Below are positions 4,245-46,154 of a stretch of 60,558 nt of DNA, in pieces; the first letter of the stretch is position 1; each line of letters starts with the position of its first letter. The DNA is from a virus (taxonomy: Duplodnaviria > Caudoviricetes): the IMG/VR virus record IMGVR_UViG_3300035395_000108, positions 1 through 60,558 of that record; one strand, given 5' to 3'. The notes under the pieces were generated by a model, which saw only the letters and a list, made by a program, of their open reading frames with translations, had not been told where the DNA came from and ran no database searches. The position numbers were made by a program, and so were the translations under genes.

Positions 4245-4268
4245 CTAGCTCTCTGGTATGAATGTATT

Positions 4269-4303
4269 CCAAATACAACAAAATGCAACCTTGGCTAAAT
4301 TAT
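4269..4303 (+). repeat. 35-bp direct repeat, copy 1 (CCAAATACAACAAAATGCAACCTTGGCTAAATTAT)
   Basis: Identical to 5075..5109; the first 16 bp also occur at 62..77. Confidence 0.9.
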
Positions 4304-4351
4304 GCAACAAAAACCTAACATAGGTTTGTTAAAATAAATATGGTTTTATTG

Positions 4352-4380
4352 TTGACTGTTTGCTTTGGAAGGAGTATGAT
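4352..4380 (+). promoter_or_regulatory. Sigma70-type promoter with no substantial ORF downstream
   Basis: TTGACT-17-TATGAT. Confidence 0.75.
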
Positions 4381-4381
4381 T

Positions 4382-4725
4382 AATGTAATGCCTCTACTGT
4401 AGCACAAGGTACATTGTAATCAGTAATGAATACAAAGTATTAAGGAAACAGGGGGAGCAGTGAAGTGCGGGTGAACGGAATCTATCCTAACCCGCCACGT
4501 GCGAGCAAAGGTTCGAAGCTGAAGAGAGTAGCGACTTGGGTAGGCGGTTTAGTAGTTGATGTTTAAGATACCTGGTCAACGGGTCCTTAAAATATAGACG
4601 AAAAGGAAGAATCACCGTTCAACGTATTGGAGTGTGAGCTTAGTATGAACTGCTATAATTAACATCTTAGCAGGGAGGAATAGCCCACCAGGTAGCATAA
4701 ATTACTTAGGGTTCCTTTGTTTTTT
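4382..4725 (+). ncRNA. Candidate structured non-coding RNA, possibly origin-associated
   Basis: Follows a promoter; locally GC-richer; TACCTGGT 4569-4576 pairs with ACCAGGTA 4687-4694; CTGCTA/TAGCAG; GCGGGT/ACCCGC; ends in a T-rich tract. Confidence 0.5.
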
Positions 4726-4998
4726 ATGTAAACCCCAAAAAAATAGAGGCTACCCCGAGAAAAAAAAATAGGTTAGCTAGCTAGCTACCTAGGCAACACC
4801 TTGATATTATTACAGTTTTTTCTTCCCCTTTCTTCTTGTTTTTTTACCTAAACCCTACATAGTACCCAAAATCCTTGTAGTATATACTTTTTTTCTACTT
4901 TAATATTCATTTGGGGGATGTTTTTTTTACGAGGACAGCTAGAAAATAGTCAGGCTGTTTTAGCTTAAGTTTGTTTCAGACAGAGCTTCAACCAATAT

Positions 4999-5046
4999 AA
5001 TTTAACCTAGGGCTAATTTGCCACCTAATTAGCTCTAGGTTAAATT
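4999..5046. repeat. 20-bp inverted repeat (one G-T) with an 8-nt loop
   Basis: AATTTAACCTAGGGCTAATT-TGCCACCT-AATTAGCTCTAGGTTAAATT. Confidence 0.85.
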
Positions 5047-5074
5047 TAAAGTTAACTATAGGTGCAAACATATC

Positions 5075-5109
5075 CCAAATACAACAAAATGCAACCTTGG
5101 CTAAATTAT
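5075..5109 (+). repeat. 35-bp direct repeat, copy 2
   Basis: Identical to 4269..4303. Confidence 0.9.
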
Positions 5110-5147
5110 ATAGCAAAAACTAACTTAAAATTTATCTTAGTATTTTG

Positions 5148-5176
5148 TTGACACCCTACACAATGTGTAGTATTCT
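5148..5176 (+). promoter_or_regulatory. Promoter of the helicase operon with a palindromic spacer
   Basis: TTGACA-17-TATTCT; CTACACA-A-TGTGTAG dyad at 5156-5170. Confidence 0.7.
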
Positions 5177-5213
5177 ATATATTGGTTGATAATTTATAGC
5201 ATGGAGGTTTAAC

Positions 5214-8739: not shown

Positions 8740-9098
8740 CAGTAACATTGATGACATGGGAAACATCGCTTTTTCTACTAGCAGAAAGACTGCTAGCGAT
8801 AATTGAAACTACAACCACAGATGATACGGTATGGATGATTGATGAACACATCAGGGCACTGGCTGACGAATTAGAGATAGAAGAACTTGGAGTGCTGGAG
8901 CCTAATGTGGTTTCTATTAATGCTTTGCACACCAAGGTGGTAAGGCTAGTAGATGAGTTATCTAAATTAGCGAAACACAGTTCGGACCAACATAAACAAG
9001 CGGATGCTTGGGGAGAGGCCCAGCTGGCTTGCTTAGAGATTGTAGCGATTTGGGAAATTATATACAAACAGCATTGCGACGAGAAACTAAAACATTAA
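8736..9098 (+). CDS. Hypothetical helical protein
   Basis: GGAG RBS; ATGA overlap. Confidence 0.6.
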   Translation: MTVTLMTWETSLFLLAERLLAIIETTTTDDTVWMIDEHIRALADELEIEELGVLEPNVVSINALHTKVVRLVDELSKLAKHSSDQHKQADAWGEAQLACLEIVAIWEIIYKQHCDEKLKH

Positions 9099-9115
9099 AA
9101 CTAAGGAGTAACCAA

Positions 9116-9640
9116 ATGAAAGAATTTACAGACTTCGTATATTCTAGGTTAAATAAAGGACTAACGCCGGAGAAACTGTTCAAGCATAACAATCTACTGC
9201 TCGCCGTTTTAGGGCTAGCCGGGGAGTCTTTCGAGGCCATGAAGTGTATTACCGCTGAAGAACTAACTAGCGAACTAGGTGATGTATGCTTCTATATGGC
9301 CATTTTAAAGAGAGAACTAGGTTTGAATGAGTGGACTATCCCAACTATAACAGATAAAGTTAATTTTAACGCTGTCCGTGATTTATTGGACAGCTCCTTA
9401 GAGTTAGCCGAGTTAGTTAAGAAATATATATTCCAAGAGCGAATTGATTTACTCGAGAAAATAAAAGAAAGAGTGAATTATTTTGAAGCAGGGCTATTGA
9501 AAGTTTGTGATGAGTTGGATATTAGTATTCAGGATTGTAGAACTGCATGCGTTGAGAAGTTAACCCATAGGTATCCAGTAATGTTCACCCCAGAGTTAAG
9601 TAAAAATCGGGAGGTAACAGATGGAAATGAGAATATATAG
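9116..9640 (+). CDS. mazG: MazG-like nucleotide pyrophosphohydrolase
   Basis: LGLAGESFE...ELGDVCFY motif; EKLTHRYP; start reassigned to ATG 9116 after AAGGAG. Confidence 0.8.
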   Translation: MKEFTDFVYSRLNKGLTPEKLFKHNNLLLAVLGLAGESFEAMKCITAEELTSELGDVCFYMAILKRELGLNEWTIPTITDKVNFNAVRDLLDSSLELAELVKKYIFQERIDLLEKIKERVNYFEAGLLKVCDELDISIQDCRTACVEKLTHRYPVMFTPELSKNREVTDGNENI

Positions 9641-10706: not shown

Positions 10707-11042
10707 ATGGTTTTTAGTGATTTGGCTGACGAATATATCAGTCTAGTGATATTATTATATCTACACTATGCAAGTGAAAAAGTACACGAGAGTTGGCTAA
10801 AATGGCGTGAGCCTAAAGCCCATATAGACCTCCGTGAAATCAGGTTCGAAGTCAATTATGGGTTAACTATATTTAACCCAGAGACTGCGATGGGTAGAAT
10901 ACCAGACATCATATACAGGTGTATGCAACACCCATGGACTGCTGATGTGTACGACTACATCAAGGAACAGTTAAACAACAACCACCACGTACAAGTATGT
11001 GGATTTGTAAATCAGAAGAAAGGAGTTAACAATGCAGGGTGA
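10707..11042 (+). CDS. Hypothetical protein
   Basis: GAAAGGA RBS. Confidence 0.6.
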   Translation: MVFSDLADEYISLVILLYLHYASEKVHESWLKWREPKAHIDLREIRFEVNYGLTIFNPETAMGRIPDIIYRCMQHPWTADVYDYIKEQLNNNHHVQVCGFVNQKKGVNNAG

Positions 11043-11535
11043 TTGGTCTTATTGGAACAGTTTAGCTTTAAAAATGGCAGATGAAGAAGAGGCTAAGAAG
11101 AAGCAAGCAATAGAAGATGAGAAGGCATTAAAAGAAGCCTTAACTATTGACGTGAATAAGGTTACCGATAAAAGGCAAGCCAGACAACTGAAACCACAAT
11201 TTTCTGTTAACAGCGAACCTGTGTTCCCTGTTTTAGAGGAAGTGTTAAAAGAGTTCAGTTATTCGGAAACTATCGAACTAGTGCGGACCAGAATGATTTT
11301 AGGCCTAGAACGCTATGGACAAGAATTGCATAGCTTCAATGGCAGAGATTGTAAACTGGACGCTATAGAGGAGATACTTGACTGTATGCAGTACGTTACA
11401 CAACAGTACATGGAGCAGACGGCCAGTGATTTGCTAACTCACTCAGACAAGGCAAGGATAAAGTATACTTATAAGAAAACGATTAATCTCTTATTAGAAG
11501 TGCTTTTCAATGTAGAAGATAACTTACAAACTTAG
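11032..11535 (+). CDS. All-alpha NTP pyrophosphohydrolase-like protein
   Basis: GLERYGQEL..FNGRD...DAIEEILDCMQY; EExxD metal motif. Confidence 0.6.
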   Translation: MQGDWSYWNSLALKMADEEEAKKKQAIEDEKALKEALTIDVNKVTDKRQARQLKPQFSVNSEPVFPVLEEVLKEFSYSETIELVRTRMILGLERYGQELHSFNGRDCKLDAIEEILDCMQYVTQQYMEQTASDLLTHSDKARIKYTYKKTINLLLEVLFNVEDNLQT

Positions 11536-11540
11536 CCAAG

Positions 11541-11570
11541 TTGACAGCTAGCACATAGATGTGCTATCTT
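11541..11570 (+). promoter_or_regulatory. Promoter with a palindromic spacer
   Basis: TTGACA-18-TATCTT with TGn extension; TAGCACAT-AG-ATGTGCTA dyad at 11549-11566. Confidence 0.7.
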
Positions 11571-11576
11571 TTAATA

Positions 11577-11653
11577 GCAGTCACTAGTATAATCGGTTAG
11601 TACGCCTCAGTAACGCTGGCTGGGGAGGTTCTGTTCAAGTCAGAGAAGACTGC
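11577..11653 (+). ncRNA. tRNA-like element or pseudo-tRNA with a non-canonical anticodon arm
   Basis: GCAGTC/GACTGC acceptor; TA-GTAT-AATCGGTTA-GTAC D-arm; TTCTG-TTCAAGT-CAGAG T-arm; CCTCAG/CTGGGG stem with a 9-nt loop; no CCA. Confidence 0.65.
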
Positions 11654-11682
11654 TCTTATTTAAAATGAAAGGAAAATGTAAA

Positions 11683-12816
11683 ATGAGTAAATTAAAACCA
11701 AGCTGGTATCAGTTAGTAAACCTAGATGGCGAGATTGGCTGTATTGCATACAATGCAAGTGCTAAATTGTATAGGAAATGGCTACCAAATAAAGCAATTA
11801 GTTTGAGTAAATATCTGACTGAGCTAGGTGAAAACAATATTCACGTAGCTACCGTAACACCAGCTGATTACAACAAACTACCTACTGAAGCAGAATATAA
11901 TAGAGAAGACAAAAAGGAAGATGAAGACGGAGTCAAGCCTGTTACTGATGAAATAAGAATCAGCCCAAACCAATCAGAGCGAGCGGGAACAGTAAACAGG
12001 GTTGTTCTTCACAACACGGCTAGCTCTTACGAATCCGCCGTTAGTTGGCTATGTAACCCGACTGCCCAGGCTTCGGCTCACCTAGTTATCGGTAGAGACG
12101 GTAAGGTTTGCCGAATGGTTGATGACAATTTTGCAGCCTGGCATGCGGGGAACCGCACGGTCAACCACCAAAGTATTGGCATAGAGATAGTCGCAACCAA
12201 TGAAGAGCGGGGAATGACTGCTGCTCAGGAAGCACAAGTTATCGCATGGGTTAAACATTTTGCTGGGAAGTACAATATAAAAGCTGACAATATTGTAGGC
12301 CATAGGACAATTGTTAACACAAGCTGTCCAGTGTTAATTTGGGAAACTGAAGCCGACTTGAGAAGCTGGGTTAACGCAAAAATAGCTGGCAAAAAAGAAG
12401 ACGACAAAAAAGAAACTCCAATAACTGGTGTGTTAAAGTATGCGAGAGACAAGGATTTACAGATAACTGCCAACTTCAACACTAGCGAGTTACAATGCAA
12501 ATGCGGTGTGTGCGACGTTCAGTTACTTGACGCTGAACTAGTAAACAAATTACAGGCACTTAGAGATAGAATTGGGCAGCCGATTACAGTGACTAGTTGT
12601 TACTGCTGTCCAGCACATAACACCAAAATTGGTGGTGCTGTTAATAGCTATCACACAAAGGGGTTAGCAGCTGATATTTATGTTGACGGCATGACTGTCG
12701 AGCAGTTAGCTAAACACGCAGTAATGGTGGGGTTTACCGGAATAGGTAGTTATTACAGAAGTGGCTTTGTACATGTTAGTGTTAAATCTAACGAAGGCGA
12801 TTTTGTGGGAGATTAA
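11683..12816 (+). CDS. Endolysin: Amidase_2 N-acetylmuramoyl-L-alanine amidase plus C-terminal peptidase M15-like domain
   Basis: VVLHNT, SAHLVIG, AWHAG, SIGIE, GHR..SCP; then QCKCG...SYHTKGLAADI...FVHV. Confidence 0.85.
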   Translation: MSKLKPSWYQLVNLDGEIGCIAYNASAKLYRKWLPNKAISLSKYLTELGENNIHVATVTPADYNKLPTEAEYNREDKKEDEDGVKPVTDEIRISPNQSERAGTVNRVVLHNTASSYESAVSWLCNPTAQASAHLVIGRDGKVCRMVDDNFAAWHAGNRTVNHQSIGIEIVATNEERGMTAAQEAQVIAWVKHFAGKYNIKADNIVGHRTIVNTSCPVLIWETEADLRSWVNAKIAGKKEDDKKETPITGVLKYARDKDLQITANFNTSELQCKCGVCDVQLLDAELVNKLQALRDRIGQPITVTSCYCCPAHNTKIGGAVNSYHTKGLAADIYVDGMTVEQLAKHAVMVGFTGIGSYYRSGFVHVSVKSNEGDFVGD

Positions 12817-12819
12817 CTG

Positions 12820-12848
12820 TTGACAGGGTTAATGTACTATGGCATACT
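12820..12848 (+). promoter_or_regulatory. Sigma70-type promoter upstream of the DNA polymerase
   Basis: TTGACA-17-CATACT with TGn extension. Confidence 0.65.
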
Positions 12849-12903
12849 AAAGGAAGACTGATTTGAAGACTCCTTTTTCATAAAAAGAAGTAAATTGCTA
12901 TAT

Positions 12904-12934
12904 GAAGGCCGGCTAATTGCCTGGTCTTCTTTTT
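12904..12934 (+). terminator. Intrinsic terminator or attenuator just before the polymerase RBS
   Basis: GAAGGCCGGC-TAATT-GCCTGGTCTTC followed by TTTTT. Confidence 0.65.
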
Positions 12935-12951
12935 ATTGGGGTAAATTATTT

Positions 12952-15153
12952 ATGGAATGCGTATATATAGATTTTGAGTACTACAACTCAAACGAACAGT
13001 ATTTGAACCTCGTTTGCTGTAGCATTCTAATAGACGACAATACAGAGAGTTACTGGTTGCTGGATGATAGCGAAAGTGAACTATTAAAGAAAAGAATACT
13101 CGAGTTGCAGGAAAATAGAACTTTCGTGTGTTACGCCGCCACCGCTGAGGGACGCTCCATACATACTTTATTTATGGGTGATATAGATTTATATGCTTTC
13201 AATGTCATAGATTTGCATCTGGAATATAAGGGGGTTATCAACCATAGTGAATTCTCATACGGAGCCCAGCTCATAGACGGAAAAATTAAATTCACAGAGC
13301 CCAAATTATCTAAACTGGAGTTGGAGAATGGCGAGGAGCAGGAATACAGCTCTGATAAAGCTCCAAGTTCGCTAGCCTCCGCTGTATTTAAAATGCTTGG
13401 CAAGCAGATTGATACTCAGCATAAAACAAATATGAGAGATATAATCCTATCTAAAGATAACAAGTTAATAGAAGCAAACCGTAAGTTTATCCAAGAATAC
13501 TGTGATAGCGATGTTAAATACTTGCCAACGTTAACTAGTAAAATATTAGATTTCAATAGAGGGTTAATAGTAAAAAGTTTGCACTATAAACACGAAGACT
13601 ACATAAAGTCCGTGCTAACTAGAGGAACGTTAACCTTTGCTAGTTGTACATTAATTGAACATCTTGGAATCCCAATTATGTATGATGAGCTGAAGAATCT
13701 GTCAGAAAACATAGAAAAGATTTATGCAGACACTTATGCGGATGCCTCACTTAAGATACTCCAGGAACATAAGTTCACCCCATTCTATTATTCAGCTAAG
13801 GAGAGGCGATGGAAAACATCTGAAAAATCTTTACGCTCATTTATAGGTAGCCTCAGTCAAGCTGATAAATGGAAGAAAACTGATAACAATGATTTTAGTC
13901 TCTCAGGTGAGGCGTTCGAACAGTTTTGTTCAGACAGACATGTTTACCAGGACAATTTGATATCTCAGATGTGTAGGATAAATCAACTCAAAACTTCGCT
14001 TAACTCAATGCGAGTTACTGAAGGTAAGCGGAATTTCTTTGATGCTATCGGAACAGATAAAAGGTCCCGGCCTTATCTGAATCCAATCGGTACGCAATCA
14101 ACCAGATTCGCACCTCCTGCGACAACATTTTTATTTGCTAAAAGTGCTTGGCTAAGGAGTCTTTGCAACACAAGTGATAGGAAAACTATCATTGTAGGTA
14201 TGGATTATAGTCAACAAGAGTTTTTGTTAGCAGCTGTTTTGTCAGGTGACAAGAATATGATTAAAGCATACCTTTCTGGAGATGTTTATTTAGAGACCGC
14301 TAAACTAGCGAAGGCGGTTCCTGCCGATGCAACTAAGGCAAAGTACCCATTACAACGCCAACTGTTTAAATCTGCTGTTCTCGGTATCAGTTTCTCTATG
14401 ACAAAACATGGATTAGCTGATGAAATAGAACCATATATCCTAACGCAAGAGGAGAGGAATGTATTTGGCCCTAAGTGCAAGTTCAAAAGTAAAAAAGATT
14501 TGAGAGAGTTTACTCTAGCCGAGGCTGACAAATTGATAGATTTGTTCTGGAAAGCATACCCAGTTTACAAAGATTTTGCAGATGAAATATATCCTGAGTA
14601 CTCAGAGAACGAGGGGTTGGCTATCCCGATGTCACTGTTCCCTATGCACGGGTTAAATAAAAACAGACGGTCTGTTGGTAATGTGAAGATACAGGGAAGC
14701 GGGGCAGCAATCTTAATGAAACTACTCGAACTACTACAAAAGTGGAGTCTGAGTAAGTATGGCAAACCTTGCGTGATTGCACCTTTGCATGATGCTTGTT
14801 ACCTAGAGATTCCATACAGTGATTTTGATACCCTAACAAAAGATTTGGTAGACATAAAATCATGTTTTGAGAATGCTTACTCTGTGTGGGCGAAGGTTGC
14901 GGGCAAAATGAAATCAGAACCCCCAATGATTAGGGTTGGAGGGGAAGTATGGGCGAACTGGATTAATCCAGAAAACATGAGTGAGGTACCCCTAAAGGAA
15001 GTCAGTAAAGGGCTGTATGAAGGTGAACTGGAGGTCAATGGCATGGGTGTAGCAGTTAACACCATACATAGAGATGAACGCATATCAATAGCCGACTTTC
15101 TTAACTATCAGGCGTATTTAATGCCGAATAATCAATGCAATAACGGATTCTAA
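12952..15153 (+). CDS. polA: Family A DNA polymerase with 3'-5' exonuclease
   Basis: Exo I IDFEY; Exo III YCDSDV; motif A MDYSQQE; motif B RQLFKSAVLGISF; motif C LHDA; start likely ATG 12952. Confidence 0.92.
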   Translation: MECVYIDFEYYNSNEQYLNLVCCSILIDDNTESYWLLDDSESELLKKRILELQENRTFVCYAATAEGRSIHTLFMGDIDLYAFNVIDLHLEYKGVINHSEFSYGAQLIDGKIKFTEPKLSKLELENGEEQEYSSDKAPSSLASAVFKMLGKQIDTQHKTNMRDIILSKDNKLIEANRKFIQEYCDSDVKYLPTLTSKILDFNRGLIVKSLHYKHEDYIKSVLTRGTLTFASCTLIEHLGIPIMYDELKNLSENIEKIYADTYADASLKILQEHKFTPFYYSAKERRWKTSEKSLRSFIGSLSQADKWKKTDNNDFSLSGEAFEQFCSDRHVYQDNLISQMCRINQLKTSLNSMRVTEGKRNFFDAIGTDKRSRPYLNPIGTQSTRFAPPATTFLFAKSAWLRSLCNTSDRKTIIVGMDYSQQEFLLAAVLSGDKNMIKAYLSGDVYLETAKLAKAVPADATKAKYPLQRQLFKSAVLGISFSMTKHGLADEIEPYILTQEERNVFGPKCKFKSKKDLREFTLAEADKLIDLFWKAYPVYKDFADEIYPEYSENEGLAIPMSLFPMHGLNKNRRSVGNVKIQGSGAAILMKLLELLQKWSLSKYGKPCVIAPLHDACYLEIPYSDFDTLTKDLVDIKSCFENAYSVWAKVAGKMKSEPPMIRVGGEVWANWINPENMSEVPLKEVSKGLYEGELEVNGMGVAVNTIHRDERISIADFLNYQAYLMPNNQCNNGF

Positions 15154-34301: not shown

Positions 34302-37300
34302 GTGAAGATAGGTTTTATCAGCAAGGTTTAAATATTTATAATGGTTTAGATGGTGCTTCAGATGCTGCCTCTATAAATGATGGGTATCTAATGGAAGCGG
34401 AGAATGTTGACTTCTCATATGCTGGTGTTATCAGAAAAAGACTAGGGTATAATATTGTTGGCGGAGACTTTCCAATCAGAGCTAAACGCATATCTAATGG
34501 TAGTATTGAACTCGATAGTCAGCCAGTTATTACCGTTTCGGGTGTTTTACATCCGTTTGACACTAGCCTGCAATCAATTATAACCGAATATAGTTTAGGT
34601 ATAACAGATTTCAAGAGTACTTTTTCAGTACTAGAGATAACAACTGATGTCCAAATAAACTATATGGATTCTGATATACTATTTGGAATAAATGGTGTAA
34701 CTGAGGCAAGCTTAAAGAAATACAAACCGGTTTTCGCTTTAACGGATACTTTGATAGTTGTTTCCAATGAGTTAATATATGAAATGGGGTTAGACCCTTC
34801 TATTTCTGCACCATTTAGTGATTTAATAGTTTACAAAGGGTACACTTTACCAAAAGTTAACAGTAAGGTACTTTCAGTAGTACAAGATATTTCATATGCA
34901 ATAACTATTACTTTTGAAGATAATCATAATCTACTATCGGGTTCACAAGTTTACATTGATACTCTATTTAGGACTGGAACATTTACATGTGTTTCTGGAA
35001 CTATATCAGTTATAGATGATAAGATTATACAAGTATACTATGACACTTCTTATGAAGCGAGAACAGCTAACGGTGTTGAAAACTTTGAGTGGTTAAATAT
35101 CTATTACTCTTTCCCAACTACTGTAGATATCAGAAGGAGTAGTTCAAATAAAGGAGACTATCTGTTAGATTCGATAACAGGTATTAACCGAATATATGTT
35201 AACCTATCCTCTCAAGTTGGTTTGATGTGGGTTTGGGGTTTAGGTATTACTCCTCCAGTTACTGGGTTAACCAAGTTCAAAGATAATGAACTTATCGCAA
35301 CATGTCAAAACTGGGCTTTTGTTTGGAAAGATGTAAAAACACCTATCAAGCAAGCAACCCCTATAAGTATGCCAACAACTGAGACATTGAAAATTATGCG
35401 AGGACTTGGTTCACCAGTGCTTACAGAAGTTGCAAGAGGACGTTTGAGGGCTGGGGACTATATCTATTGGCAGAATTTAGATGACAGTATGGAAATAGCA
35501 GACCCTAGGATTTTTAAGGTTAACCGGATAAGAAGTAATGATATAGTTATCGAATCAGCTGACGGATATCTAACAATACCAGCTAAATCAAGAATACTTT
35601 TCAGAACAGTAAGGGATAGCATTTATGCTAGCGAATACTTACCAGTAGGAAGTATGATAACTGTAAACAACCAGACAGTTAAAGTGGTGGCCAACCGATT
35701 CACTTCAGCTGGAACACTATCTGTCTTATCAGAATCTATATCGTATAGTTCTACTGACACAATACTTTTAGCACAACAGTGGGAGCCTTTGAATATAAGT
35801 GGAGACGATTTGTTTCCATATACAGGGTTGAACCCGTCAGCATATATAACAGATTTGATAAAAGTTTCTACTGCTGAATACGCTGATAGAGTTTACTTAT
35901 CTTATGGTGAAGGTGGTATTTGGAGATATAACGGAAGGAATCTAACAAACATGCGTTGGGGTGCTCCCCCAATGCCTACAGTTAGGAGACTCATAAATGT
36001 TCCAGGAAGTATAACTGTTAAAGGTTCTACTAGTGAAGGCTTTATGGCTTCTGAGGTAAAGATAGCTGTCAATTATGGTTGGGAAGATTTTGATGGTAAA
36101 ATATTTGAGTCAACCTATATAAACTGGGAAGATTTAACTATCCGCCCTAATATAACTGATTCCAATGATGCTGAACAAATAGAGATATGTATCCCTACTT
36201 TCCCAGGTAATTTAGGTATACCAGCAGATAAAGTTAAGATAAGGGTGTATGCTTTGGAGGATTCAGCAGAGGATACATTCTTATCACTTGTTACCGAGGT
36301 AGATAACCTACCAAATCAAACATATGTTATCGCAACTATTGGCGATAGGTTCAATAAGTTTTTTACTAACGCAAGCGATTTAGCATTAACATCTGCTCTT
36401 AATGATTCACCAATGATGGCACCAAGATGTTCTGGAATTGTGGCCTCAGAAAATAGATTGATTGCCTATAATACTTTGAGTGAATCTTCAGTTGAATTTA
36501 GCTGTGATAAAGTTTTCAAAGATGATGATACCGCTCAAATAGAGACAACTGTTATAACTTATGAACCAATACTTGGGAATAAGTATGAATTTGTTGGGCA
36601 AACATCTGGCCTTGGTTGGGTTGGGGTAACCCCTAAACCTTTAGCCAGGGGGTTAAAACTTTATCAAGCACAGTATATAGATACTAGCGATATTATACAT
36701 TTAACCATGCCATTAGTTAGCGGAGGTTCTGTTTTATTAGCAACCCCTAAACTATCCAACGTTAGGCAGAGAGCATTAGTATCTACACTCGGCCCTATAA
36801 AGTCTAACATAGATTTTAACGAGACACTGTTCACATTGGGGAACAAAATAAACCCTACAGATATCTCCAATCCGGCAGCTCCGCCTGCAACAAATTATTT
36901 AGTATCTCCAGTAAAAAATAGGGATACTGATTTCCTGAGAGAGATTAATCCAGATGCAAAAGGAATGTTATTTTATGAGATACTGGATTCCACAGGTAAA
37001 TATGAAACAAAAGACCCTTGTATAATGATTTCTGGGGGCAAACTGTTTCTATGTATTGACCCTGATGAGTTCACAGATATAATGACAAACAATGTTACAT
37101 TTGGTGCTTTTAGAGTTTACTTTAAGAATGATGCTGACAGAACGTTAGGAAATTTGAGAGACAATAATACTGGTAAAGTTCTTGACTGGAATAGAGATGT
37201 TATCTTCGGTTTTACTTTGGGGGCTAATATCATATTTGATGATGGGGTTTTATCTGGTAAAGCTTACCATGGCTACCCTTTGGTATTGGTGAATATACAA

Positions 37301-39742
37301 AACGACCCTGCAGCCTACCTTAAGTTAGCTGATGATAACTTTAAGGCAACTATAGATGTAACTCATGCAGAAGGTGGACTAAAACATGGCGGATTTAGTT
37401 TGTTTGCAAGTTACTTAACCCTTAATTCGGGAGCATCTACTTACAAGATAGATACAGCTATCGGGGATACTAAAGCTTCGCCATCTAGTTGGAGAAGGTA
37501 TTTCATAAAAGATGCTAACACTAAGATTGACGGAATTTATGTATCATATGATGATAGCTTCCCATTTTACTCAACTTTCCTAGAACCTGGGTTAAACGAT
37601 AAGTTACTGGTTAAATGGTTAACAACTGATGCTAACAACTCTTCAAATTTTACTATATTCACCTCGGGAACCAAAGTTAAAGTTAAACTATTTGATAGCA
37701 ATGATAGTCCTATAAAACATGAACCTGGTAAGGGAATGATAAACCTTGACCAAGAGTTTGAAGTTGTGTCTGGCATTTATGGAAGTTGGGTAGATAACGC
37801 AAATGCCCGTGGAATTATATTGAAAGCTCTCAAGCCACCTATTGAAACATATCTTGACCAAAAAGAAGTAAAACTAGATGTGGCTACGAGTGCATATGCT
37901 GAAATGTGGCTATCCGACATGGACATAGAGATAACTCCAAATTACTTTAGCGTTCCTGTTGACCCAGATGTTTACCTAGGTTCTGCTGAATGGAAAAATG
38001 TGTTGGCCGGAGATTGGGTTTTTGTTATATTAGCTGGAACAAGTGTTGACGAAGTATACCTTGAATACTCAGGCTGGTTTCAACTTTATGAAAACATACC
38101 ACTGTCTAGTTCTTTTAGTAGCATAAAACTAAGTAAACCGGACTCTGGTAATATTCCAAGAGGATTTAATACTCTACGTGAATCCTATGTTTTACTTGGA
38201 AGCTCTGATATAACTCTACCAGTTGGCTCAGGTAAATATGTTCCAGTTCCGCTACCAAGTAAGCCTCACAGTTATGGCAGAAGATTTGACTATGCTTACC
38301 CTCTGTTTTCAAGAACACTTGATGAAGGTAATAATGCTTTCAACTCTGTTATAGCTAGATTTGCTATGGCTATAAACACTGTTCTAAGAGATAAGGTTAC
38401 TGCAAGATGGGGGAGTTCACCAACGGGTGACATTATAAGTGATATTTACCCTGCTAACGGTATGCAGATAATACCCCATACTTTAGTAAACCGTTATACA
38501 GAAGTTAACACAAATTTTACTTTGAATAAAATTGAGATTGATTTAGCTAAGTATACCACCCCAACTGACAAATGGACAGTAAAAAATTTACCGACAGTGA
38601 CTTCCGAATTCTGGCGGGCTTTTGGTGTTAACATATCTACAAATGAGACTGGCACATTCAGCACTCAGAAAACATCTTCCTTCAGTATAACTTATTCTGA
38701 TAGGGTTCTGGATAGCACTATTTACTGGACTATATCACAGACAGATAGTTTGACTAGGTTACCTGTATTTGGATTCGTTACAACGGAAACTGTGGGTAAA
38801 GAAGATAATGAGCCTATAACTGGGGCTATCCGCTGGCAAGATATGGTTATAATAAGCAAGCCTTCGTCTATGTGGGGTATTCAGATAGCATACAACAAGG
38901 ACTCTGGGGATACTGTAAGGAAAACTAGGTTACAGGTTCCAGAGGGCAGTAAATCAGGTCAAATGGTAGCAACAGAAAGCGAAGTTTACTTTACTGGTAA
39001 CACAGGTATATGGAAAACAACTGGTACTGACTCAGAAAAAGTTAAGGTGCTTGATAGGTATTTTAAGGAGAGAGTATTACCAAGTTATAGTTACTTACCT
39101 ATAGCATCCAGTTCTTACGACAGTTTAAGTAGAACTGTTTACCTTGGTGTCCCTTACGCTACAGAAGGTGTTAGTAGTTTGCCTAATGCTAGATTCAAAT
39201 TAGATGTTACAACTTCTGCTTGGAGTGTAGATACCGCTCTATACGTTTCACAATACGCCTACATTGGGTTTAAAGAGTTTTATGGTAGTTATCTAGGCAA
39301 CGTTTTACAGAAACGCACTGAGGGCGAAATAAACGCTCACAGCGATGTTTTAGATAATATCGCATTCAAAATTAGAACACGCTATTCAGATACCGATTCA
39401 GCTTTCAAGGTTAAGTTTTTCAGAAACATGTATTTATTGTTAGGTGAAGATGCCCCTACTACTATACGCATTGGTGTTGCTTACGATTTCAAGAGGTTTA
39501 TTGATGGAGAGTATACTTCTGTAAACATAAAACCGGATGTTGCTGGAGTTAGTTTTGGTACAGAAAGTTTCGGTGGTTCTAGGTACATAGCTGACTTTAG
39601 GGTTTCAACTATGCCTAGATTCTCGCATATCAGTATACAGCTAACTAATAACGATAGAAATCCAGTTGAAGTGTTTGCAATATTCTTAGAAAGCCTTAGG
39701 GTTACTGGGAAAACCAAAGATGAACCGGTTAGCAGAAGTTGA
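34298..39742 (+). CDS. Tail nozzle (tail tubular B / P22 gp10-like) with large insertions
   Basis: N-terminal GLD....AENVDF...GVIRKRLGY; beta-propeller-like C-terminal part; FKIRT...KFFR. Confidence 0.7.
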   Translation: MSEDRFYQQGLNIYNGLDGASDAASINDGYLMEAENVDFSYAGVIRKRLGYNIVGGDFPIRAKRISNGSIELDSQPVITVSGVLHPFDTSLQSIITEYSLGITDFKSTFSVLEITTDVQINYMDSDILFGINGVTEASLKKYKPVFALTDTLIVVSNELIYEMGLDPSISAPFSDLIVYKGYTLPKVNSKVLSVVQDISYAITITFEDNHNLLSGSQVYIDTLFRTGTFTCVSGTISVIDDKIIQVYYDTSYEARTANGVENFEWLNIYYSFPTTVDIRRSSSNKGDYLLDSITGINRIYVNLSSQVGLMWVWGLGITPPVTGLTKFKDNELIATCQNWAFVWKDVKTPIKQATPISMPTTETLKIMRGLGSPVLTEVARGRLRAGDYIYWQNLDDSMEIADPRIFKVNRIRSNDIVIESADGYLTIPAKSRILFRTVRDSIYASEYLPVGSMITVNNQTVKVVANRFTSAGTLSVLSESISYSSTDTILLAQQWEPLNISGDDLFPYTGLNPSAYITDLIKVSTAEYADRVYLSYGEGGIWRYNGRNLTNMRWGAPPMPTVRRLINVPGSITVKGSTSEGFMASEVKIAVNYGWEDFDGKIFESTYINWEDLTIRPNITDSNDAEQIEICIPTFPGNLGIPADKVKIRVYALEDSAEDTFLSLVTEVDNLPNQTYVIATIGDRFNKFFTNASDLALTSALNDSPMMAPRCSGIVASENRLIAYNTLSESSVEFSCDKVFKDDDTAQIETTVITYEPILGNKYEFVGQTSGLGWVGVTPKPLARGLKLYQAQYIDTSDIIHLTMPLVSGGSVLLATPKLSNVRQRALVSTLGPIKSNIDFNETLFTLGNKINPTDISNPAAPPATNYLVSPVKNRDTDFLREINPDAKGMLFYEILDSTGKYETKDPCIMISGGKLFLCIDPDEFTDIMTNNVTFGAFRVYFKNDADRTLGNLRDNNTGKVLDWNRDVIFGFTLGANIIFDDGVLSGKAYHGYPLVLVNIQNDPAAYLKLADDNFKATIDVTHAEGGLKHGGFSLFASYLTLNSGASTYKIDTAIGDTKASPSSWRRYFIKDANTKIDGIYVSYDDSFPFYSTFLEPGLNDKLLVKWLTTDANNSSNFTIFTSGTKVKVKLFDSNDSPIKHEPGKGMINLDQEFEVVSGIYGSWVDNANARGIILKALKPPIETYLDQKEVKLDVATSAYAEMWLSDMDIEITPNYFSVPVDPDVYLGSAEWKNVLAGDWVFVILAGTSVDEVYLEYSGWFQLYENIPLSSSFSSIKLSKPDSGNIPRGFNTLRESYVLLGSSDITLPVGSGKYVPVPLPSKPHSYGRRFDYAYPLFSRTLDEGNNAFNSVIARFAMAINTVLRDKVTARWGSSPTGDIISDIYPANGMQIIPHTLVNRYTEVNTNFTLNKIEIDLAKYTTPTDKWTVKNLPTVTSEFWRAFGVNISTNETGTFSTQKTSSFSITYSDRVLDSTIYWTISQTDSLTRLPVFGFVTTETVGKEDNEPITGAIRWQDMVIISKPSSMWGIQIAYNKDSGDTVRKTRLQVPEGSKSGQMVATESEVYFTGNTGIWKTTGTDSEKVKVLDRYFKERVLPSYSYLPIASSSYDSLSRTVYLGVPYATEGVSSLPNARFKLDVTTSAWSVDTALYVSQYAYIGFKEFYGSYLGNVLQKRTEGEINAHSDVLDNIAFKIRTRYSDTDSAFKVKFFRNMYLLLGEDAPTTIRIGVAYDFKRFIDGEYTSVNIKPDVAGVSFGTESFGGSRYIADFRVSTMPRFSHISIQLTNNDRNPVEVFAIFLESLRVTGKTKDEPVSRS

Positions 39743-46125: not shown

Positions 46126-46154
46126 TTGACAGTAAGGTTTACCTTGGGTAGGAT
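46126..46154 (+). promoter_or_regulatory. Sigma70-type promoter with a spacer dyad
   Basis: TTGACA-17-TAGGAT; AAGGT-TT-ACCTT in the spacer. Confidence 0.65.

Follow-up and report, generated by a model that had tools for sequence, protein, structure and literature searches.

A candidate decayed tRNA gene in the predicted leader of a phage endolysin gene

The window analysed here is a 60,558-bp IMG/VR virus record taken at its full length (IMGVR_UViG_3300035395_000108; CheckV completeness 37%), and our subject is a tRNA-derived cloverleaf at positions 11577-11654 of its + strand, delimited by sequence reading, relaxed ARAGORN, a covariance model and a 17-nt match to known D arms. The element has a predicted promoter upstream and an endolysin gene downstream. 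The promoter is a motif match of the sigma-70 type (11541-11570, + strand; TTGACA-18-TATCTT with TG before the −10 box, 10 of 12 matches) and ends six bases ahead of the element, which makes a transcription start near 11577 plausible. The endolysin gene (11683-12816, + strand) encodes Amidase_2 (6.8e-29) and Peptidase_M15_3 (1.2e-23) domains. Its start is most likely ATG 11683 rather than 11665, because all seven of the aligned homologues begin there, because DNA homology to the related record G001 begins there, and because a Shine-Dalgarno-like AAAGGAAAA (11668-11676, + strand, by sequence reading) precedes it, with its GGA 9 nt from the ATG. The 29 nt from the element to this ATG, which contain the Shine-Dalgarno-like motif, agree with the roughly 30 nt given in an initial annotation of this DNA. 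The same annotation held that the cloverleaf forms the leader of the endolysin transcript. The promoter-like site ending at 11570 lends that claim support, while the transcript itself is a prediction. Judged by the promoter, the element would form the first ~77 nt of an endolysin leader of ~106 nt, compared with leaders of ~26-40 nt at three other TTGACA promoters, and we found no terminator between the element and the endolysin gene.

The features listed in the initial annotation, that is, a cloverleaf with D and T arms, an extended anticodon stem, acceptor mismatches and no CCA, are all present in the sequence. We numbered the element by anchoring it on the D and T stems, and this numbering is consistent with its alignment to the custom covariance model described below. 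G-1 is at 11577, the acceptor strands at positions 1-7 and 66-72 are at 11578-11584 and 11646-11652, and position 73 is C11653, with one trailing base. In place of seven acceptor pairs there are five, followed by the non-pairs A6.A67 and C7.A66; G-1 is able to pair with C73, which would give six uninterrupted terminal pairs. After the 5' acceptor strand come U8 and A9, then a D stem of 4 bp (GTAT/GTAC) closing a 9-nt loop that carries A14, G18, G19 and A21, and then G26. The anticodon stem can be read as 5 bp (CCTCA/TGGGG) around 11 nt, as 6 bp (CCTCAG/CTGGGG) around 9 nt, which is the extended stem and loop first described, or as 7 bp around 7 nt, the latter being the minimum free energy (MFE) fold, without U33. 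Just 3 nt precede the T stem (TTCTG/CAGAG), whose five pairs include G53-C61 and close a TTCAAGT loop of the TTCRANY form; the custom model prefers an alignment with two stem positions deleted. The bases U8, A14, G18, G19 and A21, the G53-C61 pair and the canonical T loop are all in register, and the D and T arms are canonical, as the GG of the D loop and the T-loop sequence had first suggested. The missing CCA is not abnormal for this lineage, since the sound tRNA-Thr of a related locus, L020, does not encode it either.

Is this element derived from a tRNA, or is it a chance fold? Tools of the kind named in the initial annotation give a divided answer. Default ARAGORN finds no tRNA genes in the window, and the Rfam tRNA model (RF00005), which matched in 14 of 14 control genomes, gives no match at its gathering score of 29 bits, nor at E<=10, whether the input is 301 nt, 89 nt or the complete record; the element is thus below every Rfam threshold tried. 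Relaxed ARAGORN (-ps), by contrast, returns a single match on both strands of the 60.5 kb, and this match is the element (11577-11655), read as Val(aac) or, when -i is added, as Gln(ctg) with a 4-nt insert. In 40 dinucleotide shuffles the same search gives a mean of 0.05 matches per window. We also built a covariance model, R1, from 21 class-I tRNAs of other, unrelated viral loci, leaving out all tRNA-Gln, the genes that share the element's D arm, and long-arm and intron-bearing genes. Run with filters off on both strands of the window, R1 places the element at the top of its list, aligned along the whole model at 25.4 bits (rough E 0.0003) and 13 bits above the second-best match at 12.3 bits, so that by relaxed ARAGORN and R1 the element is the sole tRNA-like sequence of the contig. 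Finally, the 17-mer of its D arm (11587-11603) occurs exactly in 10 IMG/VR contigs, and in each of the 10 it is the D arm of a tRNA gene: five are tRNA-Gln genes and five are copies of one tRNA-Ile(tat) gene. ARAGORN calls a tRNA in 8 of these contigs, the remaining 2 being tRNA-Ile genes with a 17-nt insert.

Taken together, the relaxed ARAGORN match, the R1 score and the D-arm 17-mer lead us to conclude, from sequence, that the element is tRNA-derived. That it is an ordinary 5' untranslated region which happens to fold as a cloverleaf is very improbable. The silence of the Rfam model even at E<=10 on 89 nt is what such a region would give, its MFE is not unusually low (z -1.07; 28 of 200 shuffles at least as stable), and 2 of the 40 shuffles do yield one relaxed ARAGORN match; but a chance fold would not be expected to give a full-length R1 match so far above everything else on either strand, to share 17 nt with tRNA D arms in 10 of 10 contigs, or to hold the tertiary-contact bases in register. 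Two further searches returned nothing of the element itself: a 27-mer from its 3' part has no matches, and blastn of the 79-nt element against isolated phages gives 10 records with only 18-21-nt matches within protein genes, at E 2-8.

The departures from a tRNA are as distinct as the resemblance. The R1 alignment has 11 nt at the place of the 7-nt loop, two deleted positions before the T loop, and the non-pairs 6:67 and 7:66, and the arm as it stands does not form a five-pair stem with a 7-nt loop carrying U33 and a purine at position 37. We attribute the four extra bases of the anticodon loop to a 4-nt unit (GCTG/CTGG, 2.25 copies) that is perfectly duplicated in tandem on the 3' side of the loop, at 11615-11623 of the + strand. 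When one repeat unit is removed, the arm becomes 17 nt with a 5-bp stem, a 7-nt loop, U33, the anticodon AAC and G37, and its loop is the one that relaxed ARAGORN reads as Val(aac). The commonest Val codon in the window open reading frames (ORFs) is GTT (609 of 1124), and a tRNA reading GUU could therefore once have been useful. The duplication is no assembly error, since the allele recurs across sequencing runs. Thirteen sequencing runs are listed with matching DNA, no RNA run among them, and we compared alleles in 4 of the 13 (X3, X5, X6 and X7): contigs from X3 (4), X5 (2) and X6 (2) are at least 99% alike and show 0 differences, one X3 contig (record 2) spans 11479-11635, duplication included, with 0 differences, and X7 gave 0 contigs. 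The element thus combines clear tRNA ancestry with lesions that would be expected to abolish function, as a pseudogene does. The view of the initial annotation that it is not a decoding tRNA is probably right, given how far its anticodon arm, acceptor base and variable region depart from tRNA models.

A leader element is expected to be conserved with the gene that it regulates. We compared the locus with four related loci, L020 (in record G001), L021, L022 and L023, whose endolysin proteins are 76% identical to that of the window in L020 and at most 50% identical in the other three. No tRNA-like leader lies upstream of the endolysin gene in any of the four; instead, ORFs abut the gene, and in L020 a 114-aa ORF reaches the endolysin start. 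Positions 11500-11700 are without a match in all three of the relatives' records searched (L020, L021 and L022), and the DNA homology between the window and G001 extends over 11683-12816, from start codon to stop, at 69.5%. Because the homology stops at the start codon and none of the four loci has the element ahead of its endolysin gene, the sequences indicate that no conserved endolysin cassette includes it.

tRNA genes do, however, adjoin this endolysin within the lineage, as far as the sequence of L020 tells. Just 3' of the L020 endolysin gene is a tRNA pair (L020:5262-5450 with its promoter), an off-consensus tRNA(tta) followed by a tRNA-Thr(tgt); L021, L022 and L023 have no tRNA at the endolysin locus. 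The tRNA-Thr(tgt) scores 48.4 bits with Rfam. The tRNA(tta) is called by default ARAGORN, has no Rfam match at E<=1, and scores 25.4 bits with R1. Neither L020 tRNA gives a meaningful alignment with the element. A promoter, TTGACA-18-TATAGT with TG, lies eight bases before the first tRNA, between the 3' end of the endolysin gene and the MazG module. Since L020 shows the same geometry before its first tRNA, the promoter predicted at 11541-11570 is probably the tRNA gene's own, now also placed upstream of the endolysin gene. The anticodon reading of the tRNA(tta) is that of an ochre suppressor; its acceptor stem contains a T.C mismatch, its D stem is only 3 bp long and its anticodon stem includes a G.G. 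The tRNA-Thr(tgt) is normal but very A/T-rich, with a TGAAAAT T loop and no GG in its D loop.

These comparisons draw on a sparse set of relatives. Closer ones are known as proteins only (P0002, P0003, P0004 and P0006, with endolysins 69-83% identical). A blastn search of 11000-12900 against isolated phages gives no match, and tblastn with the endolysin gives 570 records, all below 60% identity and none covering 80%. The IMG/VR scan with the endolysin alone gives 19 loci that share the M15 domain only, that with MazG gives G001 only, and those with the DNA polymerase and the upstream 167-aa ORF give no loci. A metagenome scan gives 13 loci, of which L023 is the sole full-length relative, and a genome scan gives 5 loci with the amidase domain only.

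We propose, with moderate confidence, that a tRNA gene has decayed here and that its promoter has come to serve the endolysin gene as well. The ancestor would have been a phage tRNA gene with its own sigma-70-type promoter. A slippage event duplicating 4 nt would have turned its tRNA-Val-like arm, with a 5-bp stem and a 7-nt loop carrying U33, AAC and G37, into the extended arm seen today, and further damage would account for the two mismatches at the acceptor base and for the loss of two nucleotides between the anticodon stem and the T loop. Because of these three kinds of damage, the RNA is most likely no longer charged or decoding. The promoter would have survived because the endolysin gene lies directly downstream, and the relic would be carried passively at the head of the endolysin leader, where host tRNA-end enzymes may still clip it, incidentally. 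Of the three possibilities raised by the initial annotation, a decaying tRNA is the one that has gained evidence, from the duplication, from the absence of the element upstream of the endolysin in four relatives and from the L020 tRNA pair; a nuclease decoy and a processing signal are not contradicted but have gained none.

A number of observations weigh against this proposal. No intact tRNA is found at the same site in the four loci examined, and decay is therefore read from one sequence. A 4+4 tandem is present in 4.05% of the 21-nt windows of the contig, about 1 in 25 by chance, so the repeat is suggestive and not proof, and there are several other 4-nt deletions after which the loop would again carry U33 and a purine at 37. 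No conserved core base of the D or T arm has been altered, and the identical allele in three further runs from two studies indicates that the sequence is stable in nature. The genome is tightly packed, and in such genomes dead DNA is usually lost fast. Finally, the first RNA after the equivalent promoter of L020 is also an off-consensus tRNA, which may point to a class of odd tRNAs under selection.

Could the element have been put to use? It might be an exapted tRNA-like leader in which cleavage by RNase P, RNase Z or RNase E, or shielding of a paired 5' end, sets the stability of the lysin mRNA and hence its amount or timing. We regard this as somewhat unlikely, although several features fit it: the element fills the coding-strand leader exactly between the predicted promoter and the ribosome-binding site (RBS), the G-1:C73 pair would complete six uninterrupted terminal pairs beside intact D and T arms, the leader is far longer than those of the other TTGACA promoters, and its allele is identical across several samples. 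But the element is absent at the endolysin genes of all four relatives examined, both mismatches fall within the acceptor/T helix that tRNA-end enzymes read, and the folding of the whole leader is at chance level (z -0.36; 73 of 200 shuffles fold as well). A switch that masks the RBS was rejected, as the leader offers a weak A/U hairpin only at that same z-score.

The element might otherwise be a working, non-standard tRNA, or a decoy, whose enlarged arm cannot be cleaved, soaks up an anticodon nuclease or reads an unusual codon, a reading that we consider distinctly unlikely. The nuclease-evading phage tRNAs described so far reportedly are functional molecules that have point changes in a loop of the normal 7 nt and keep a sound acceptor stem, unlike the element, in which an insertion is joined by damage elsewhere. 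In favour of a working RNA, the tertiary-contact bases are intact, and the element resembles such defence-evading tRNAs in being a phage tRNA-shaped RNA with an off-norm anticodon loop; three papers describe tRNAs of phages in which changes to the anticodon loop allow escape from anticodon nucleases (PMC10264068, PMC11464382, PMC11555353), including a PARIS-neutralising tRNA (PMC11464382) and evasion of a retron (PMC11555353). PMC10264068, however, contains none of the terms insertion, decoy, pseudogene, non-canonical or loop size. Moreover, the four extra loop bases, the two acceptor mismatches and the short variable region argue against charging, and no need for recoding is visible: table 11 reads the window ORFs cleanly, with TAA, TGA and TAG as stops in 29, 13 and 7 cases. 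It is unlikely, in our judgement, that the tRNA relic has acquired a use, either as a functional 5' part of the endolysin mRNA, recognised by host tRNA-end enzymes so that cleavage or protection of the 5' end controls how long the lysin mRNA lasts and when lysis occurs, or as a released ~77-nt RNA whose enlarged anticodon arm soaks up a tRNA-cleaving defence nuclease. If it were so, the off-consensus tRNA behind the same promoter type in L020 would count as another member of a class under selection, and the element would be a rare case of a tRNA-shaped RNA reused by a bacterial virus for lysis-gene control or against tRNA-targeting immunity.

Three other identities were considered and rejected. 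One is a short intron like those of the tRNA-Ile(tat) genes with the same D arm: the contigs of these genes carry algal-virus-like sugar genes, and bacteria are not known to have a tRNA-splicing endonuclease. A tRNA-Sec-like RNA is excluded by the lack of a long variable arm and of UCA. Finally, an attP fragment is not expected to hold a whole cloverleaf, as the element does, and no integrase is found among the 20 large ORFs scanned.

How does the element compare with known systems? In the Escherichia coli thrU-tyrU-glyT-thrT-tufB operon, tRNA genes are co-transcribed ahead of an mRNA, and the C4 RNA of phages P1 and P7 and the CI RNA of P4 are matured by RNase P. In these cases, as predicted here, a tRNA-shaped unit lies upstream of a coding region on one transcript, separable by tRNA-end enzymes; they involve working tRNAs or demonstrated cleavage, whereas the element is known from sequence alone. 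In comparison to the canonical tRNA of RF00005, the element shares the D arm, the T arm, U8, G26 and the order of the four arms, and it leaves CCA unencoded as the L020 tRNA-Thr does; it differs in the 11 nt that replace a 7-nt loop, in the non-pairs 6:67 and 7:66 and in the 2-nt deficit before the T loop. The closest likeness is to the tRNA pseudogenes of T4-like phages, which form the 'Pseudo' class of tRNAscan-SE and are tabulated in PMC1524935: both have tRNA ancestry and disabling lesions, fail standard thresholds and belong to a phage lineage with tRNA genes, here judged by a relative. The element differs in being a lone copy between a promoter and an endolysin gene, outside a tRNA cluster, and in having a main lesion that can be named, the 4-nt tandem duplication, and its intact counterpart was not found among the relatives examined. 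As a tRNA relic the element would be ordinary. It would show that a single slippage event can hide a tRNA gene from standard finders, and it would mark the endolysin-adjacent junction as a tRNA-gene site in a little-known phage lineage.

The tRNA-Ile(tat) genes that share the 17-mer vary in themselves. The number of extra nucleotides directly after the CTTATGA of their anticodon loop is 0 in L046, 10 in L043, 17 in L044 and L047, and 21 in L041, which looks like introns, short and differing in size, at the usual 37/38 site. The versions with the 17-nt insert go undetected by ARAGORN. Their neighbours, tRNAs Thr-agt, Leu-caa and Arg-tct and, in L044, genes for GDP-mannose dehydratase and glycosyltransferase-17, suggest algal or giant viruses, where introns are expected.

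Up to ~47 kb, nearly all ORFs of the window are on the + strand, with inter-ORF gaps mostly below 30 nt. Besides a MazG gene at 9008-9640, the recognizable genes encode a family-A DNA polymerase, an exonuclease, a helicase, a Holliday-junction resolvase and, farther along the record, a portal protein. Among isolated phages, the closest counterpart of the DNA polymerase shares 33.7% identity with it, and a PHROGs scan of 20 large ORFs left 15 of them without a match; the source phage is therefore poorly known. At E<=1e-5, PHROGs gives no match for any of four very large ORFs within 20378-44217 (1096, 2471, 1814 and 1226 aa). The widest gap without an ORF of at least 60 aa, at 4245-5213 (969 nt), lies ahead of an 859-aa gene, and ARAGORN and Rfam give no match inside it.

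Apart from the endolysin gene, DNA similarity between the window and G001 is confined to a 520-bp MazG patch (96.9%) and four stretches of 39-106 bp. The patch pairs window 9115-9634 with G001 37156-37675. Identity falls to 69.5% in the endolysin gene, 2 kb from there, and the intervening genes are either unrelated or share ~37%. From the sequences, this contrast indicates a sharp, recent mosaic exchange. The orientation of the endolysin gene relative to the MazG module is inverted between the window phage and G001.

Promoters of the TTGACA type occur ahead of other genes as well, at 5148, 12820, 15174 and 46126, and the class is weakly above chance (8 observed against 4.19 expected; 7 of 100 shuffles reach 8). 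The spacer of the promoter next to the element holds a perfect 8+2+8 palindrome (11549-11566, with no strand assigned) followed by a T-rich run, terminator-like with 7 pairs of which 3 are G-C; it might act as an operator-like site or as a weak terminator of the upstream genes. Similarly, there are palindromes in the spacers of two more of these promoters, 7+1+7 at 5156-5170 (promoter 5148) and 5+2+5 at 46134-46145 (promoter 46126), and the three may be binding sites of a regulator. The motif GAAGACT(G), which recurs in the DNA-polymerase leader, is not enriched in the counts made (3 against 1.73 expected; 12 against 8.88 expected). Finally, we note that within 12820-12952 a promoter-like TTGACA-17-CATACT at 12820 precedes a hairpin of 9 bp with a T run (12904-12934), which lies only 18 nt ahead of 12953, where the DNA-polymerase gene likely starts, giving the gene block a second long structured leader.
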